DNA from: an uncultured Candidatus Saccharibacteria bacterium
GTDB lineage: Bacteria; Patescibacteriota; Minisyncoccia; Phycocordibacterales; WO2-35-19
Length of the DNA: 64,000 nucleotides
Direction of reading: 5' to 3'
Assembly (NCBI GenBank): GCA_964630525.1
Contig: CAZVUY010000002.1
Coordinates: 33,760-97,759, forward strand
Shown here: positions 3,221 to 63,343 of the stretch, in pieces
How positions within the stretch are numbered: position 1 is the stretch's first letter
Layout of the letters: every line of letters begins with the position of its first letter
The notes under the pieces: generated by a model
Seen by the model: the letters and a program-made list of their open reading frames with translations, nothing else
The model's database searches: none
Told to the model about the DNA's origin: nothing
Translations under genes and position numbers: made by a program

Positions 3221-5695
3221 ATGGCTAAAATGGCTAAAAAAGAGGAAAAAAACGATGAAATTCTAAATACTGGGTCTAGTGTGGTGTCGCGCTCGATCGT
3301 GACCGAGATGAAAAAATCCTTCATCGACTATGCCATGTCGGTGATCACTGATCGAGCTTTGCCGGATGTGCGCGATGGCCTAAAGCCGGTTCACCGCCGC
3401 ATTCTCTATGCCATGCATACCATGGGCCTCACCGCTTCGGCTAAGTCTCGAAAGTCGGCCACAGTGGTGGGAGAAGTTTTGGGTAACTACCACCCGCACG
3501 GCGATGTCGCTGCTTATGATGCGATGGTCAAGATGGCTCAAGATTTCGGCTATCGTTACCCACTGATCGTCGGTCAGGGAAACTTTGGTTCAATTGACGG
3601 AGATTCACCAGCGGCGATGCGTTACACCGAAGCCAAGATGAGTCGGATCGCCGGCGAACTTTTGCGTGATATAGGCAAGGAGACGGTCAATTGGGTACCC
3701 AACTACGATGCCACCAAAAAAGAGCCGGCAGTTTTGCCGAGCGCAGCTCCGCAGCTTTTGCTCAACGGCACCTTGGGTATTGCGGTTGGTATGGCGACCA
3801 ATGTGCCACCCCACAATCTAAGAGAAGTGGTAGATGCGACTGTTTATTTGATAGACAACAAAGAGGCGACAACTGAAGATTTGCTGGAATTTGTCCAAGG
3901 TCCGGATTTCCCACTGGGTGGTGTTATTTTCAATGCCAAAGATATCCAACATGCCTATTCGACTGGTCGCGGCGGGGTGGTTTGCCGAGGAGTGGCTGAG
4001 ATCGTGGAAGATAAAAATATTTCCCAAATAGTCATCACTTCTCTACCTTATCGAGTCAATAAACAGTCTCTTGTTGAAAAAATAGCAGAGTTGGTTCGTG
4101 ATAAAAAACTTGAAGGCATCAAGGGTTTGCGTGACGAATCGACCAAGGACATTCGAGTGGTGATCGATCTCAAAAACGGTAGTTATCCGCAAAAAGTACT
4201 CAACTTTCTCTATAAACACACTCAACTTGAGGAAACTTTCCATTTCAACTTGGTGGCGCTCGTAGACGGCGTACCTCAGACCCTTTCGCTCAAAGGTATT
4301 TTGGAGGAGTTTATCAAACATCGACAGATAGTGGTGCGTCGGCGCACCGAATTTGACTTGCGCGAAGCCGAAGCGAGAGAGCATATCTTGCTCGGTCTCA
4401 AAAAGGCACTTGATCATATCGACGAGATCATCAAATTGATCAAGAAGAGCAAGGACGTGGATACCGCTAGAGCAAACTTGATGAAGGAGTTCAAATTCTC
4501 CGAGATTCAAGCCAACGCTATTTTGGAAATGCGACTCCAGAAACTCGCCGGTCTTGAAAGGCAGAAGATCGAAGATGAACTCAATGCGGTGCAGGCTCTG
4601 ATCAAAGAACTCAAAGATATTCTAAGCAATCCCAAAAAGATCCTCTCTATTATCAAGAAGGAACTTTCTGAAATCAGTCAAAAATATGGCGATGATCGTC
4701 GTACCAAGGTGATCAAAGGCGGTGTCAAAGTGCTTTCGATCGAAGATTTGATCGCTGACGAAGACAACACCCTTATTCTGACTGCTGGTGGCTACGTGAA
4801 GCGCACTCACCCAGACGAATATCGCAAACAAAAACGCGGCGGGGTGGGAGTGGTTGATTTGGATACCAAGGAAGAAGATTTTGTAACCAACTTTTTAACA
4901 GCCAGCACTCATTCAGACCTCTTATTCTTCACGGATCGAGGTAAGGCTTACCAAATCAAGATGCACGAATTGCCGGAAGGCAAGCGAGCGACGCGCGGCA
5001 AGTCGATCATGAATTTCCTCTCGCTTTCGGAAGGGGAGAAGGTGACCTCAATCTTACCAATGCCTAAAAATTTGAAAGAAAATAAAGATTTGTCGCTACT
5101 TATGGTGACCAGCGATGGTACCGGCAAAAAAGTTTCAGCTGCCAGTTTCCATGATGTGCGAGCGAGCGGTATTATCGCGATCAGACTTTCTGATGGGGAT
5201 CGGTTGGTATCGGTTTCGGCGGTTACCAAGGGAGATACCTGTGTGGTAGTGACTGCCAAGGGCCAATCAATCCGGTTTAAGGAAAATGATGTTAGGGAAA
5301 TGGGTCGGACTGCCGGTGGAGTGAGAGTGATTAAGTTGAGCAAAAATGACCGGGTGGTTGGCGCTCATCCAGTACCGAAAGAAAAAGAGAAAGACGCTGC
5401 TCTTTTGACCATGGGTGCAGGTGGTTATGGCAAGAAGACTCCGATTGGTGAATACAAAATACAAAATCGTGGTGGCAGCGGTATCAAGACCAGCAATGTG
5501 ACAGCGAAGACTGGCGAGATTATCGCTTCAGCGGTGGTTACCGGTGAAGAGGAGGAGGCAGTGGCTATGTCTAAAAAGAGCCAAGTGATCCGCCTCGGCC
5601 TCTCTGAAATACCGTCATTGGGCCGCTCTACTCAAGGAGTCCGTATCATGAAGCTCTACCCTGGTGACTCCATCGCTTCTTTCATTTGTCTATAG
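3221..5695 (+). CDS. gyrA: DNA gyrase subunit A
   Basis: 824 aa; N-terminal [28 protein letters not shown] and HPHGD motif, active-site region [11 protein letters not shown]-terminal beta-pinwheel repeats. Confidence 0.95.
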
Positions 5696-59045: not shown

Positions 59046-59375
59046 TTATTCTCTGGTTAGTTTGAAATCAACCATTTTCACAATAGTATCTGGGGTGACT
59101 TTGTCACCGTAGTACTTTCTGTATGTCTCATACATTTTTTCATCGCTTTCAAATTTTTCGTGCCCCTCAAAATCGCTTTCTTCCAAATCTTTGAGTTTCT
59201 TTTCTTCTATTTTGGTTATTACTGCTTTGGCAAATTCTTCTTTTGTTTCCCAATTCAAAAGAGATAATTCGTCTCCTTCTTTCAAATCTTTATCGTCAAA
59301 CAATCTCCATGTACAAGTTTTTTCTCCTCTCAGCACAAGTGGGATTAAATAAGGTCTAAATTTAACTGTTTTCAT
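59046..59375 (-). CDS. ASCH-domain-like small protein
   Basis: KTVKFRPYLIPLVLRGEKTCTWR N-terminus resembles ASCH/PUA-like fold. Confidence 0.5.
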   Translation of the reverse strand: MKTVKFRPYLIPLVLRGEKTCTWRLFDDKDLKEGDELSLLNWETKEEFAKAVITKIEEKKLKDLEESDFEGHEKFESDEKMYETYRKYYGDKVTPDTIVKMVDFKLTRE

Positions 59376-59479
59376 AAAACTAGTCTAAACGAATTTTTTA
59401 TAAAAGAAAACCCCCTAGAATAAAGAGGTGAGTTGGTTATCTAATTTATCACTTCAGAACTAATTTATTCAAAACAAAA

Positions 59480-59815
59480 AGCCCTCGCATTCCCCGAATG
59501 GGTACTAGCTTGGGCTGGGTGGGTTACAGACTATATTCGTGCTGTTGAGGGAGAAGTCTGGATTCCCTCGCACTAGCTCACTGGGTGAGCAAAGAACTGG
59601 TCGGGGTAAGTAATAGTTTAGGTTCCTATCACTACGACTTACCCCACGGAAGACAGAAAACGGAAAACAGCATATTGTCGGTCAACTCCTTTAGGAACCT
59701 ATCAGGAATATCACGACTCACCCCTGTCGTATCACTCTAAGACCGAAGGACGTCTTTCGAGAGCTCGATTTGCGCTTACTGCATTGCCAAGGTCTAAATC
59801 GAGATGAATAACCCT
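59480..59815 (-). ncRNA. candidate ~335-nt structured RNA with own promoter and terminators; identity unknown
   Basis: minus-strand TTGACA-N16-TATACT (plus coords 59822-59852); upstream terminator (59890-59915) ends the preceding gene; GC-rich stems (GGGGTAAGT...ACTTACCCC; AGGTTCCT/AGGAACCT); U-rich tail CTTTTTGTTTTG near 59480; no ORF >20 aa. Confidence 0.35.
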
Positions 59816-59932
59816 GGCACCATTAGTATAACAAATCGGCATTTTTTGTCAATCATAAAACACATTTTGTAAATGTCAAAAGCAGAAAAGCCTTATAAAA
59901 TAAGGGTATTTTAGGAAGTTAGAAAAAATGAG

Positions 59933-60241
59933 TTAAGATTTGGTAATCTTCCTTTTTACAGAATCAACAAACAACCTGAAAGCGGGTCGTTTTTCCTTTT
60001 CGTAAATGATTTTAACTCCAAGCAGATGACCTTTAGGACAAGATAGGTCTTTTTTCAGAATAGAAACTTTAGGCTCCATAATTCTATCTATATACATTCT
60101 CCTAAGATTCCCTGGCCCATCTTTTTGGTAGAGGCAAATATTTGCCCCACACTTCTCGCAAAACATTCTTAGTAGCCTAGAGTAGCCTCCCCTGGCTTGT
60201 TTATATTTATCTCTTTTAAAGACAACTTTGTTCATATCCAA
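59933..60241 (-). CDS. hypothetical small Cys-containing (zinc-ribbon-like) protein
   Basis: 102 aa; CEKCG...C...CPKGH spacing. Confidence 0.45.
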   Translation of the reverse strand: MDMNKVVFKRDKYKQARGGYSRLLRMFCEKCGANICLYQKDGPGNLRRMYIDRIMEPKVSILKKDLSCPKGHLLGVKIIYEKEKRPAFRLFVDSVKRKITKS

Positions 60242-60286
60242 ATCGTATTTGAATAAAGGTAAGTTGTAAAGAAAAAACTCAATTTT

Positions 60287-60796: not shown

Positions 60797-60892
60797 AAAT
60801 TACAGTATAACAAAAGTTCACATAATTTTTAAATATATTTTCCAGGAGCAACAACAAAAAACCGCCCTATAAGGGCGATTTTCATGTTGGCT

Positions 60893-61050
60893 GCTCCGGG
60901 AGCAGGGGGTATCTCCCTCGACTCAAAAATTTGTCGGCCACAAATTTTTGGTCTAGGCACCGGCTCGCTAAATTTTGTGCTCAAAATTTTCAGCTCCGCC
61001 GTTCGATCCCTGACGAAAGTGCAATTCAATGCACTTTCTCTCCTCGGAGC
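60893..61050. repeat. structured repeat element B (copy of element A)
   Basis: aligns with 21694-21844 at ~80% identity with compensatory hairpin changes (CAAAGCAAG..CTTGCTTTG vs GAAAGTGCA..TGCACTTTC); closing stem GCTCCG/CGGAGC. Confidence 0.6.
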
Positions 61051-61213
61051 CACAAATGACAAAACCGCTTTGCAAAAGGCAAAACGGTTTGTGTCAGTGG
61101 CTCGCACTGGCTGACGATTTTAGAACGATAGATTGGGTCAGCGAGTATCCTTATCCTACCATAGCCCTAGCCGAGATAAAGGCATTACTGGAAGAAGTTC
61201 AAACCGTCTAAAA

Positions 61214-61591: not shown

Positions 61592-61622
61592 GCAAAAGTA
61601 AACATTTTTTATAAAAGAAAGA

Positions 61623-61650
61623 GCGCCACCCGAAGATGGCGCCCTGCGAT
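61623..61650 (-). terminator. intrinsic terminator for the GC-rich minus-strand gene
   Basis: GCGCCA-CCCGAAGA-TGGCGC; on the minus strand followed by TCTTTCTTTTATAAAAAA. Confidence 0.55.
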
Positions 61651-61663
61651 CAGATTGAACTGA

Positions 61664-62986
61664 TCAATACGGCTTCAGAAAGGAACACTGGTAGTCGAGT
61701 CGGATCGGCTGGTTGGCCGCCTTGGCAATGCCGACACATTCGCGGATTTGCGTCTTGCGCTCCTCCACGAGCTGCTTGAGAGACTGCTTGCGTTCTCGAT
61801 CGTTCTTGCCCTGAGCTCGAGAAGCGAGGACCTTCTCGTTGAAACACTTGTCCTCACCAAACTGCTCTGCGATCGCAGCGGCAATGCCGAAGTTTCCGGC
61901 AATGACCGCCTTGTCGAAAGTCAGAGCAGCACACTCGTCCAGACTGACCTTCTCGTTATCACCATACTTCGGGAAGAACACCTCACCCACCAAGTAGTTG
62001 ACGTGGTAAGCGTATGCGAGCTTGCCCTCAGCCAGCTTGTCTGCAAGCCAGTTGATGAGCTTGGAACGAAGCGTCGGATCAGTGTTCATGCCGTGCTTGG
62101 CAATGACTGCCGCGATGTATGCATGACTCATGTAGCTGTCGATCACCCTGTCGGTCATCTCACACATGAGCTTCCTCAACCGAACGCTGTCGGATCCCCA
62201 CGGCAAGACCTGCGATTCGAGAACCGCGGCCATGTAGTAGAGATCGAGGCCGCCCTTCTTGAACTTCTCGATCCACTGGAAGAACGCTTCCTGCACCTCC
62301 TCTCTGCTCATACCGAGCTCTTGGAGGCGCTTTGCGAGGGCGCGATACTTCATTGCGTTGTGGTCGATATTCTCCTCGAGAGCACCGTGATCATCATGAT
62401 AAGTGTGGTACTTCTTCGGAAGAGTGAGACCGAGCCATTCGGCATAAAACTTTTCGCCGAGGTAGTCGGTGAGGTGGTTGCTCTCGTAGAAATACGCGAG
62501 CAATATCCATCGCTCGATCTGGTCCGCGAACTTCTTGTTCTTGGGCCGATACTGCTCGAAGACCTTGCGAGTGGCGCTGATTTCCCACGAGCCAACCCAA
62601 GACTCAATGACTCTCAAGTTGACCGGATTGATCTCAATCGCCTTGGCCAGAAGGCGCTCGATGAAGCTCCTCGTCTGGCGCTCCTTCCACCCGAAAAACT
62701 TTGCAATTCCCGGAATGGTGAAGAAGCAGGACTTATCGAGAGAGTAGACGACGGGGTCGCCCTTCTCACTACGATCAAACTCGGCTGAGTCGATCTGGGT
62801 GGCATCCGCACGATACGGATTCTGAAAGAAGATGCCATTGTCGACGAGAGCGTTGAGCTCCGTCAAAGCATCAATCTTGAGATTCTTCTGGAAAAGCAGT
62901 CGAAGCCGCTCTCCCGGATTCTCGATGAATGCCAACTGGCGTCTGGTCTCCTCAACGGCTGCGCCGCTGATTGTTGCGTTTCTCAT
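61664..62986 (-). CDS. hypothetical protein, GC-rich foreign-looking gene (start at MRNATISG with AAGGAG RBS; track ORF extends to 63016)
   Basis: ~441 aa; strong codon periodicity; the 346-aa plus-strand ORF 61748..62788 is its shadow; composition unlike the rest of the window. Confidence 0.6.
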   Translation of the reverse strand: MRNATISGAAVEETRRQLAFIENPGERLRLLFQKNLKIDALTELNALVDNGIFFQNPYRADATQIDSAEFDRSEKGDPVVYSLDKSCFFTIPGIAKFFGWKERQTRSFIERLLAKAIEINPVNLRVIESWVGSWEISATRKVFEQYRPKNKKFADQIERWILLAYFYESNHLTDYLGEKFYAEWLGLTLPKKYHTYHDDHGALEENIDHNAMKYRALAKRLQELGMSREEVQEAFFQWIEKFKKGGLDLYYMAAVLESQVLPWGSDSVRLRKLMCEMTDRVIDSYMSHAYIAAVIAKHGMNTDPTLRSKLINWLADKLAEGKLAYAYHVNYLVGEVFFPKYGDNEKVSLDECAALTFDKAVIAGNFGIAAAIAEQFGEDKCFNEKVLASRAQGKNDRERKQSLKQLVEERKTQIRECVGIAKAANQPIRLDYQCSFLKPY

Positions 62987-63269
62987 TTCTTGCTCCTTGT
63001 GCGTGCTCTGTCCCATTCGGGCGAGCGTGCTCTATAGGGGTTGAAGTTGTACTCACCAATTGCACAAACTCTTTCGGGAAGTCCCTACGAAGTTTGGCAA
63101 GGAAGTATGTGGCACGTGCCTGACGGCGCGGCCAACGGAACGCTGCAAGTTCTTGAGCCCGATTCGGATTGTTATCCTTGGCGAACCCAACGAGCTCTGG
63201 ATACCCGAGGGCACCCATACACTCTTTTTTCAATTCTTCGAGTTGGTTTTGAGGGCCATCTCGAGGCAT
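62952..63269 (-). CDS. hypothetical small protein, GC-rich, probably co-transcribed with 61664..62986
   Basis: 105 aa; AAAGGAG RBS 6 nt upstream; overlaps the downstream gene start by ~35 nt. Confidence 0.45.
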   Translation of the reverse strand: MPRDGPQNQLEELKKECMGALGYPELVGFAKDNNPNRAQELAAFRWPRRQARATYFLAKLRRDFPKEFVQLVSTTSTPIEHARPNGTEHAQGARNEKRNNQRRSR

Positions 63270-63343
63270 TGTTTACTCCTTTCTGACAAAGGACTTACTG
63301 GCTACAATTGTAGCACGATATAGCAAAAATTGCAATAGCGGTT

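Follow-up and report, generated by a model that had tools for sequence, protein, structure and literature searches.

A candidate non-coding RNA gene behind a conserved dual-promoter block in a Patescibacteria genome

Between a zinc-ribbon gene and an ASCH-domain gene of a Patescibacteria genome lies a GC-rich interval that raises a simple question: is it a gene for an RNA, and if so, for which one? The sequence-only reading of this DNA had proposed a stand-alone non-coding RNA on the minus strand, with tmRNA and 6S RNA named as possible identities. I analysed the interval within the window (the whole stretch of DNA under study, 64 kb) and compared it to related loci, in order to examine its expression signals, its fold and coding potential, and its conservation.

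Neighbouring genes and promoter block

Homologues of the flanking proteins are found in MAGs of Patescibacteria, Paceibacterota and Parcubacteria. The zinc-ribbon protein encoded upstream has 598 homologues, with an identity of 70–100% across all 120 matches listed. It contains no Pfam domain, but its structural model suggests a zinc beta-tent fold, to which Yippee/Mis18, the cereblon CULT domain and the MDA5 C-terminal domain match weakly. Downstream, and on the minus strand like the RNA, is an operon encoding an ASCH-domain protein (identified with Pfam) and a 147-aa protein. Among the nine neighbouring ORFs, Pfam identified ASCH, AAA_33, DM13 and DUF4268, as well as a weak PsbP_2 match below the cutoff and a marginal Terminase_2 match just below it. 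Synteny breaks on both flanks of the locus, the zinc-ribbon and ASCH relatives having different neighbours. Genes near the locus seem to lack leaders, their -10 box being 6 nt ahead of the ATG. In the whole window, ARAGORN predicted nine tRNAs. A look-up of exact matches to proteins encoded in the window returned no recorded entry.

The interval opens with a compact set of expression signals, listed here with the gene that precedes it. Promoters were called by their match to a sigma-70-type consensus.

59933–60235, minus strand: upstream zinc-ribbon gene, 100 aa, with its stop codon at 59933
59906–59878, minus strand: CCUUAU-UUU-AUAAGG hairpin with a T-rich run behind it, a putative insulator immediately 3' of the zinc-ribbon stop codon
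59879–59852, minus strand: predicted promoter P1, TTGACA-16-TATGAT, 11/12 consensus match; its -10 box overlaps the P2 -35 box; predicted start ~59845
59862–59876, no strand assigned: perfect palindrome ACATTT-ACA-AAATGT (ACATTTACAAAATGT) within the P1 spacer, a candidate operator
59852–59825, minus strand: predicted promoter P2, TTGACA-16-TGtTATACT, with an extended -10 box; 11/12 match plus TG; predicted start ~59818

P2 is the TTGACA-N16-TATACT promoter already recognized in the sequence-only reading, which made no mention of the second, overlapping one. Sites of this quality are rare: five 11/12 matches were observed on both strands of the 64-kb window, for 1.28 expected from shuffles. P1 and P2 account for two of the five, and the remaining three precede genes. 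The palindrome of the P1 spacer is present as a single perfect copy; a second copy, which could have pointed to an operator regulon, is absent from the window. A protein may bind to this candidate operator. The upstream hairpin was not called in the terminator scan, its stem being too AT-rich. Together with its T-run, it would shield the unit from the zinc-ribbon gene, and the two overlapping sigma-70-type promoters would express the RNA, P1 carrying the palindromic candidate operator.

Architecture and coding potential of the RNA body

Behind the promoters, the GC content is 47–49%, versus 31–37% in the flanks and neighbouring genes. The features identified along the presumed transcript are as follows, with the pairings predicted from the sequence:

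59819–59478, minus strand: candidate non-coding RNA body, ~340 nt, 49% GC
59819–59785, minus strand: 5' hairpin UGCCAGGGU / ACCUUGGCA, 9 bp with a 17-nt loop, present in both the MFE and centroid structures
59803–59796 with 59771–59764, minus strand: perfect 8/8 complement CTCGATTT/AAATCGAG, from the repeat search
59803–59764, minus strand: possible H-type pseudoknot formed by this 8-nt complement, in which loop CUCGAUUU would pair with AAAUCGAG; duplex -8.9 kcal/mol
59707–59687, minus strand: hairpin UCCU / AGGA with the 13-nt loop GAUAGGUUCCUAA, from the RNA fold and the repeat search
59701–59692 with 59628–59619, minus strand: 10/10-nt complement TAGGTTCCTA/TAGGAACCTA, joining two hairpin loops
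59671–59646, minus strand: pyrimidine-rich tract CUGUUUUCCGUUUUCUGUCUUCCGUG, between the loop-complementary hairpins, mostly unpaired in the centroid structure
59645–59603, minus strand: long hairpin GGGGUAAGU../..ACUUACCCC with the 13-nt loop GAUAGGAACCUAA; stem GGGGTAAGT/ACTTACCCC of 9 bp, extending to 15 nt at 87%
59590–59528, minus strand: 3' domain with two hairpins, GCUCAC-CCA-GUGAGC (59590–59576) and GAGGGA-11 nt-UCCCUC (59569–59547)
Within the 3' domain, minus strand: putative H-type pseudoknot between loop CAGACU and AGUCUG (59533–59528); duplex -7.8 kcal/mol
59516–59470, minus strand: interrupted GC hairpin AGCCC..CCC-AUUC-GGG..GGGCU followed by UUUUUGUUUUG, -16.5 kcal/mol, the presumed 3' end

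The stems on which the original proposal was built are all present. Its 9-bp stem is that of the long hairpin, its long-range pair is in fact the full 10/10-nt complement, and its GAGGGA..TCCCTC hairpin is the second one of the 3' domain. The interval is also as stem-rich as had been described: with a threshold of 8 bp, it has three perfect Watson-Crick stems (8–10 bp, 27 bp in total), a sum reached in only 10 of 2000 dinucleotide shuffles (p ~0.005). The U-rich tail reported near 59480 corresponds to the U-run that follows the interrupted hairpin, but the two do not make up a canonical terminator, and the terminator scan made no call here. A further terminator-like site (59429–59410) does exist, but it falls in the conserved stretch ahead of ASCH.

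The 10-nt complement was equalled in 2 of 300 shuffles. The loops that it joins, GAUAGGUUCCUAA and GAUAGGAACCUAA, are identical except for their central dinucleotide (GAUAGG-UU/AA-CCUAA), and because their cores differ at exactly this point, they are a better complement to each other than to themselves (-15.4 kcal/mol for the loop-loop duplex, versus -10.4 and -8.4 kcal/mol for self-pairing). For the RNA as a whole, RNAfold gave -112 kcal/mol, with an MFE z of -2.3, and the opposite strand gives the same z. Since this value is modest and equal on both strands, the thermodynamic support is weak and not strand-specific.

Based on these predictions, the RNA would fold into about nine hairpins, and the 10-bp loop-loop contact would enclose a 26-nt pyrimidine-rich single strand (59671–59646) and expose it. 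This strand would be the most likely site for pairing to a purine-rich target, or for protein binding, and the RNA may act in trans.

Several other features did not withstand scrutiny. An internal 22-nt duplication was judged to be chance. An antiterminator formed by the loop AGGGGUGAGU and residues 59433–59424 was rejected, as the complement is expected by chance and the target is inside the conserved upstream region of ASCH. A boxA-like sequence, GUUCUUUG, is found in the RNAs of both the window and its nearest relative (see below), but this is a post-hoc resemblance to which I give no weight.

It had been stated that the interval holds no ORF longer than ~15 codons. This is incorrect, as ORFs of 22–51 codons are present, including one of 36 codons on the RNA strand (ATG at 59842) and one of 51 codons on the plus strand, but none has coding support. 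Translation of the body encounters stops in all six frames, a six-frame pseudo-protein query, which would also have picked up spurious ORFs annotated in homologous loci, found no match among 5.8 billion proteins, and Pfam identified no domain, nor any protein-domain remnant, in the bodies of the window and of the nearest relative. The stops in every frame, and the lack of a protein or Pfam match, also speak against a decayed gene. The RNA stretch contains no credible or conserved ORF and has no evident coding potential.

I next consider known RNA families. An Rfam scan, proposed in the sequence-only reading as a check, was run with 4227 families, on the whole window at the gathering score and on region 59300–60000 at E<=10 (701 nt, permissive filters); no family matched the RNA beyond chance level. 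Neither of the two identities proposed for the RNA is therefore retained. For tmRNA, ARAGORN found none in the window, no tmRNA model matched at E<=10, and there is no tRNA-like 3' end with CCA. For 6S RNA, there is no match to RF00013, and the many-hairpin fold of ~340 nt differs from the ~185-nt extended hairpin with a central bubble. Bacterial RNase P RNA was rejected as well, with no match to RF00010 or RF00011 and with the P4 motifs GGAAAGUCC and ACAGAA..GGCUUA absent. No riboswitch, T-box or leader family in Rfam matches the body. The RNA belongs to no described family, and is in kind an ordinary orphan bacterial ncRNA candidate.

Conservation in related genomes

In order to identify homologues of the body, I gathered 105 related loci (~590 kb), comprising 80 genome loci around the zinc-ribbon gene, contigs with the zinc-ribbon or ASCH genes, and matches from pattern scans. 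Neither nhmmer nor blastn identified a homologue of the body in this set. JGI samples 3300045379 and 3300071358 and Logan run SRR12487013 contain the closest relatives. A metagenome scan for the long hairpin and its loop returned 0 matches, and one with a structure-aware pattern of the 5' domain returned a single chance match, inside a coding gene. Pattern scans of viral sequences yielded chance matches or nothing, and the only BLAST match to phages and plasmids was a 35-nt AT-rich chance one. Screening the other loci for GC-rich, ORF-free islands revealed small genes or unrelated sequence, although this screen also missed the L001 counterpart described below. In phage DNA recovered by a pattern scan (L092), GATAGGATCCTAA immediately follows the -10 box in each of two repeated promoters, a placement that resembles an operator. 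Further short promoter-like modules are shared between loci in related genomes.

One counterpart was nevertheless identified at the level of the promoter block. Among GTDB genomes, L001 encodes the zinc-ribbon protein most similar to that of the window, at 87% identity. In a tblastx comparison the two match in all frames, which indicates similarity at the DNA level, and the shared promoter block was the sole yield of this search. Residues 4382–4517 of L001 align with 59935–59818 of the window, 96 of 119 window positions being identical (~81%), with E-values of 1e-16 for blastn and 5e-9 for nhmmer. In both genomes the block starts at the stop codon of the gene before it, though these preceding genes differ: in L001, two extra genes separate the zinc-ribbon gene from the block, which is still downstream of the zinc-ribbon gene. 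The upstream hairpin is kept behind this different gene, with an A->G change that preserves the pair as U.G. The L001 P1 is TTGATA-16-TATGCT (9/12), with a spacer identical in 15 of 16 bases and the palindrome present with one mismatch. In P2, the hexamers and the TG are identical (11/12), but the spacer is only ~50% identical. The block can be summarized by the pattern TTGAYATTTACAAAATGTGTNTTATGNTTGACA..TGYTATACT, and AATGGTGC follows the -10 box in both genomes, 14 nt further along in L001. The divergence of the P2 spacer indicates that neutral sites are saturated between the two genomes. As the block as a whole is ~81% identical despite this, the hairpin and dual-promoter block is under purifying selection.

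The sequence behind this block in L001 has the same general character. It would encode an RNA of ~315 nt with 51–52% GC, versus 31–37% in the flanks, that folds at -123 kcal/mol with a z of -5.8, and ends in a canonical terminator at 4784–4805. For L001 4300–4950, Rfam returned only chance-level matches at E<=10, and nothing else in the window matches the L001 RNA.

Comparison of the two bodies did not show them to be related. A collinear chain of 6-mers scored slightly above shuffles, being equalled in 16 of 500 (p ~0.03), while chains of 7-mers and Smith-Waterman and Needleman-Wunsch alignments were not significant against shuffles, and nhmmer found no match between them. An unbiased search for shared motifs gave chance level, and a shared CUGNYUUCC motif was rejected on this basis. 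The folds do not coincide either: RNAalifold on the pair gave -32.65 kcal/mol, versus -112 and -123 kcal/mol for the RNAs alone, a covariance model of the L001 5' domain found nothing in the window RNA, and L001 has no loop-loop complement beyond chance and lacks the TAGGTTCCTA/TAGGAACCTA sites. With no alignable homologue and no common fold with L001, none of the helices is supported by covariation. The comparative alignment that had been suggested to test the stems found no alignable body in the related loci. Conservation itself, the lack of which had been named as evidence against an RNA gene, gave a divided answer: the body has no detectable homologue in the sets searched, but the nearest genome keeps the promoter block in the equivalent position. 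From these two sequences, the bodies may be homologues too diverged to be recognised, or they may be unrelated and share the expression block alone.

The relation of the RNA to the ASCH gene could also be addressed by comparison. A group of ASCH relatives (L086–L091) shares 89% DNA identity in ASCH. Their alignment to the window is clear from ~59424 onwards and may start as early as the T-run (~59478), but upstream of it they have a DUF4342 gene and its terminator in place of the RNA. The ~50 nt before ASCH are conserved in these relatives, including a TAGACT 6 nt ahead of the ATG. Since this upstream region is kept in relatives that do not possess the RNA, ASCH has its own start, probably a leaderless one judging from the position of this box, and the RNA does not serve as its leader. 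The gene that follows the counterpart RNA in L001 is unrelated and has a TATAAT box of its own.

Readings of the locus and known systems

In light of these results, I regard it as an even call that the locus is a self-contained, stand-alone ncRNA gene of ~340 nt in a Patescibacteria genome, probably one of the Paceibacteria. What stands of the original proposal is the insulated unit, with its rare promoters and U-run, separate from ASCH; the identities suggested for it do not. The best reading is that of a lineage-restricted ncRNA locus, in which the regulated promoter is conserved and the body is fast-diverging or exchanged; the body would evolve so fast, or be exchanged, that recognisable conservation is limited to the expression signals. 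Two points argue for selection on the transcript: the conservation of an insulated dual promoter, and the presence, in both genomes, of a GC island of similar length (~315–340 nt), free of ORFs and their remnants, rich in stems and ending in a hairpin and T/U-run. If the locus is transcribed as predicted, the ~450 bp kept for a non-coding unit in a very small genome would imply a use.

The main rival, which I consider unlikely but well worth weighing, is that the promoter block alone matters, as a reusable module, and that the body is non-functional transcribed DNA, for example an imported or rearranged remnant, with incidental stems and GC content. It would account for a promoter with a homologue ahead of a body with none, for the synteny breakpoints on both flanks, for the recurrence of short promoter-like modules between loci in these genomes and for an MFE z that is modest on both strands. 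It is however at odds with the identity of the block, which at ~81% next to a saturated spacer implies a selected transcript, and with the paired GC islands just described, as junk amid 31–37% GC would be expected to drift AT-rich. A bolder version of the stand-alone gene, which I find doubtful, is that a conserved, operator-controlled, self-insulated dual-promoter block drives unrelated, highly structured RNAs of ~320–340 nt in different Paceibacteria. If true, this would mean either that RNA cassettes are swapped behind a constant expression platform, or that the RNA is under diversifying selection, for instance through interaction with the hosts or phages of these episymbionts.

The remaining explanations are all less probable. 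A long attenuator- or riboswitch-like 5' leader that controls the ASCH and 147-aa operon by regulated termination is very unlikely: the RNA is on the same strand and directly upstream, its hairpin and U-run are ~100 nt before the ASCH start and the promoter scan made no call between the two, but the 89%-identity relatives keep the ~50 nt upstream of ASCH with the DUF4342 gene replacing the RNA, the L001 counterpart precedes an unrelated gene with a TATAAT box of its own, and no riboswitch, T-box or leader family matches. Highly improbable is a role for TAGGTTCCTA and TAGGAACCTA, 73 bp apart, as DNA sites for a dimeric protein, serving as an operator or roadblock. Each is a near-perfect palindrome, and the operator-like placement of GATAGGATCCTAA in the phage DNA is in line with such a role; these sites are however located within the transcribed region, at a depth of 120–200 nt, each forms the centre of a 13-nt hairpin loop, their mutual pairing is stronger than their self-pairing, and they are absent from L001. 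I see only a slim chance that the RNA is a very divergent universal stable RNA (RNase P RNA or tmRNA) missed by current models, as its length, strong tandem promoters and fast-evolving host lineage could suggest. Besides the lack of an Rfam match at E<=10, of an ARAGORN tmRNA, of GGAAAGUCC and of a tRNA-like 3' CCA end, an essential RNA would stay alignable between genomes with 87%-identical zinc-ribbon genes. The least probable explanation is a small protein, translated from the 36-codon ORF (59842–59732) as a leaderless message. Its ATG is 9 nt after the P1 -10 box and 1–3 nt after the predicted P1 start, and neighbouring genes appear to be leaderless too, but P2 starts inside the ORF, the equivalent ATG in L001 opens 8 codons only, and no homologue is found in 5.8 billion proteins or Pfam.

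Returning to the stand-alone RNA gene, one orphan sequence and one positional counterpart constitute a lead, not a discovery. Patescibacteria ncRNAs appear little studied, and a full-text search of the literature found no paper on them. If transcribed as predicted, the locus extends the RNA repertoire of these very small genomes by a mid-sized structured RNA that fits no known family. More unusual is that the expression block is retained in the nearest genome, but is followed there by an RNA without any recognisable resemblance.

Among known systems, the locus resembles the orphan ncRNA candidates that the GC-IGR approach has identified in GC-rich intergenic regions of AT-rich bacterial genomes (for example PMC8632094): an ORF-poor intergenic island with GC above that of its flanks, many stems, no family, a promoter and, presumably, a terminator. 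Such candidates are reportedly accepted only with covariation among homologues, whereas no alignable homologue of the RNA body was found in the sets searched. TIGR and other guide-RNA arrays, which have been reported in parasitic bacteria and phages, also place a variable transcribed part between a conserved upstream region and a terminator at the end (PMC12045711). A TIGR array consists of two alternating 8–12-nt repeats with 9-nt spacers, in 5–15 units of ~36 nt, adjacent to a Nop-domain Tas gene (PMC12045711). The repeat search of the locus identified two-copy families only, with no alternating 8–12-nt repeats, 9-nt spacers or 36-nt periodicity, and Pfam found no Nop domain among the nine neighbouring ORFs, so that a TIGR-Tas system was rejected.

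Tandem strong promoters are typical of stable-RNA genes, as in the P1-P2 arrangement of rrn operons. With these, and with the genes for RNase P RNA and tmRNA, the locus shares a length of ~340 nt, strong tandem promoters, a stand-alone organization and a hairpin and U-run end; unlike RNase P RNA and tmRNA, it shows no family signature and no conservation between related genomes. A promoter or operator better conserved than the RNA is also a feature of the Fur-controlled RyhB, PrrF and FsrA, and of the CiaR-dependent csRNAs. These RNAs are 70–200 nt long and keep a short conserved seed, whereas those of the window and L001 are ~315–340 nt long, occupy the same genomic position, and share no seed that exceeds chance. 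What the locus has in common with the RyhB and csRNA type is a conserved regulatory block, with an operator that is here a candidate one, driving bodies without shared sequence.

A second structured stretch and GC-rich segments

The minus strand of the window carries a second region poor in open reading frames and, within a GC-rich segment, a long ORF:

60850-61140, minus strand: second ORF-poor stretch, upstream of a kinase-like gene
61664-63016, minus strand: 450-aa ORF, within GC-rich 61600-63300

The ORF-poor stretch has a predicted fold of -117 kcal/mol (z = -7.3), with a far stronger tendency to fold than the candidate ncRNA (59478-59819), and four long near-perfect hairpins are present, including a strong terminator (60883-60857). 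No match to this stretch was found in Rfam. Using nhmmer, homologues were identified in two loci from related genomes, L063 (841-1006, E = 2e-6), where the homologue lies immediately 3' of a tRNA-Gly gene, and L004 (4164-4282, E = 6e-4). The elements common to the stretch and its homologues are GAAAGUGC-loop-GCACUUUC together with AGGRAUCGAAnGnCGGAGC, and CAAAAAUUU..AAAUUUUUG together with AGUCGAGGGAGA. The stretch also adjoins a gene with a marginal match to the terminase-small-subunit HTH.

The 450-aa ORF, in which no Pfam domain was identified, and its surroundings (61600-63300) possess a GC content of 52-56%, compared to a window mean of 44% and to 27-37% for the genes at 58.4-60.8 kb; this segment looks like imported DNA. 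Another GC-rich stretch (54-56%) is found at 5350-5850 of L001, the locus from the closest genome. The only ORFs across it overlap one another, lie on either strand and have unusual predicted products, so that it could be a further non-coding or imported segment.

Promoter-like modules and a phage palindrome

Two features flank the candidate ncRNA:

59445-59483, minus strand: ~35-nt intergenic motif TTGAATAAATTAGTTCTGAAGTGATAAATTAG, directly past the U-run of the candidate ncRNA
59933-60235, minus strand: gene for a ~100-aa zinc-ribbon protein, upstream of the candidate ncRNA

The intergenic motif was found again in other Paceibacteria loci, with 22/22 identity in L005 (5386-5407) and 86% identity in both L101 (10463-10497) and L102 (5133-5167); 16-nt cores are present in L101-L104. 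The motif resembles a weak promoter module, in which 18 nt separate TTGAAT from TGaTAAATT.

L001 carries two copies, with 94% identity, of the 36-nt zinc-ribbon gene promoter region (60240-60275). One (2057-2092) directly precedes a 299-aa ORF, which is followed by the L001 zinc-ribbon gene; the other lies at 908-944. Promoter modules in these genomes seem to be reused or under strong constraint. Several genes possess a -10-like box 6 nt upstream of the ATG and no Shine-Dalgarno sequence, namely the downstream ASCH gene (TAGACT, region 59375-59390), the zinc-ribbon gene (TACGAT, region 60235-60275) and the L001 gene at 4893 (TATAAT, region 4870-4895), which suggests leaderless mRNAs in this lineage.

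A pattern scan returned a chance match in L092 (6150-6280), an IMG/VR phage contig without relation to the window. There, AAAGATAAGTATAATAATGATAGGATCCTAAT occurs in two copies and forms a perfect palindrome, TAGGATCCTA, immediately after a TATAAT box. By this placing it looks like an operator, suggesting that this type of palindrome can serve as a DNA-level site.

The zinc-ribbon protein

The zinc-ribbon protein is strongly conserved across Patescibacteria (598 matches), with 70-100% identity in all 120 of the matches listed. In other genomes its gene often neighbours RNA-metabolism genes (NYN, tRNA_edit, tRNA_bind, HNH). No Pfam domain was identified in the protein; its AlphaFold model (pLDDT 82.7) shows a weak predicted similarity to the zinc beta-tent domains of Mis18/Yippee, cereblon (CULT) and the MDA5 C-terminal domain (best E = 0.03).
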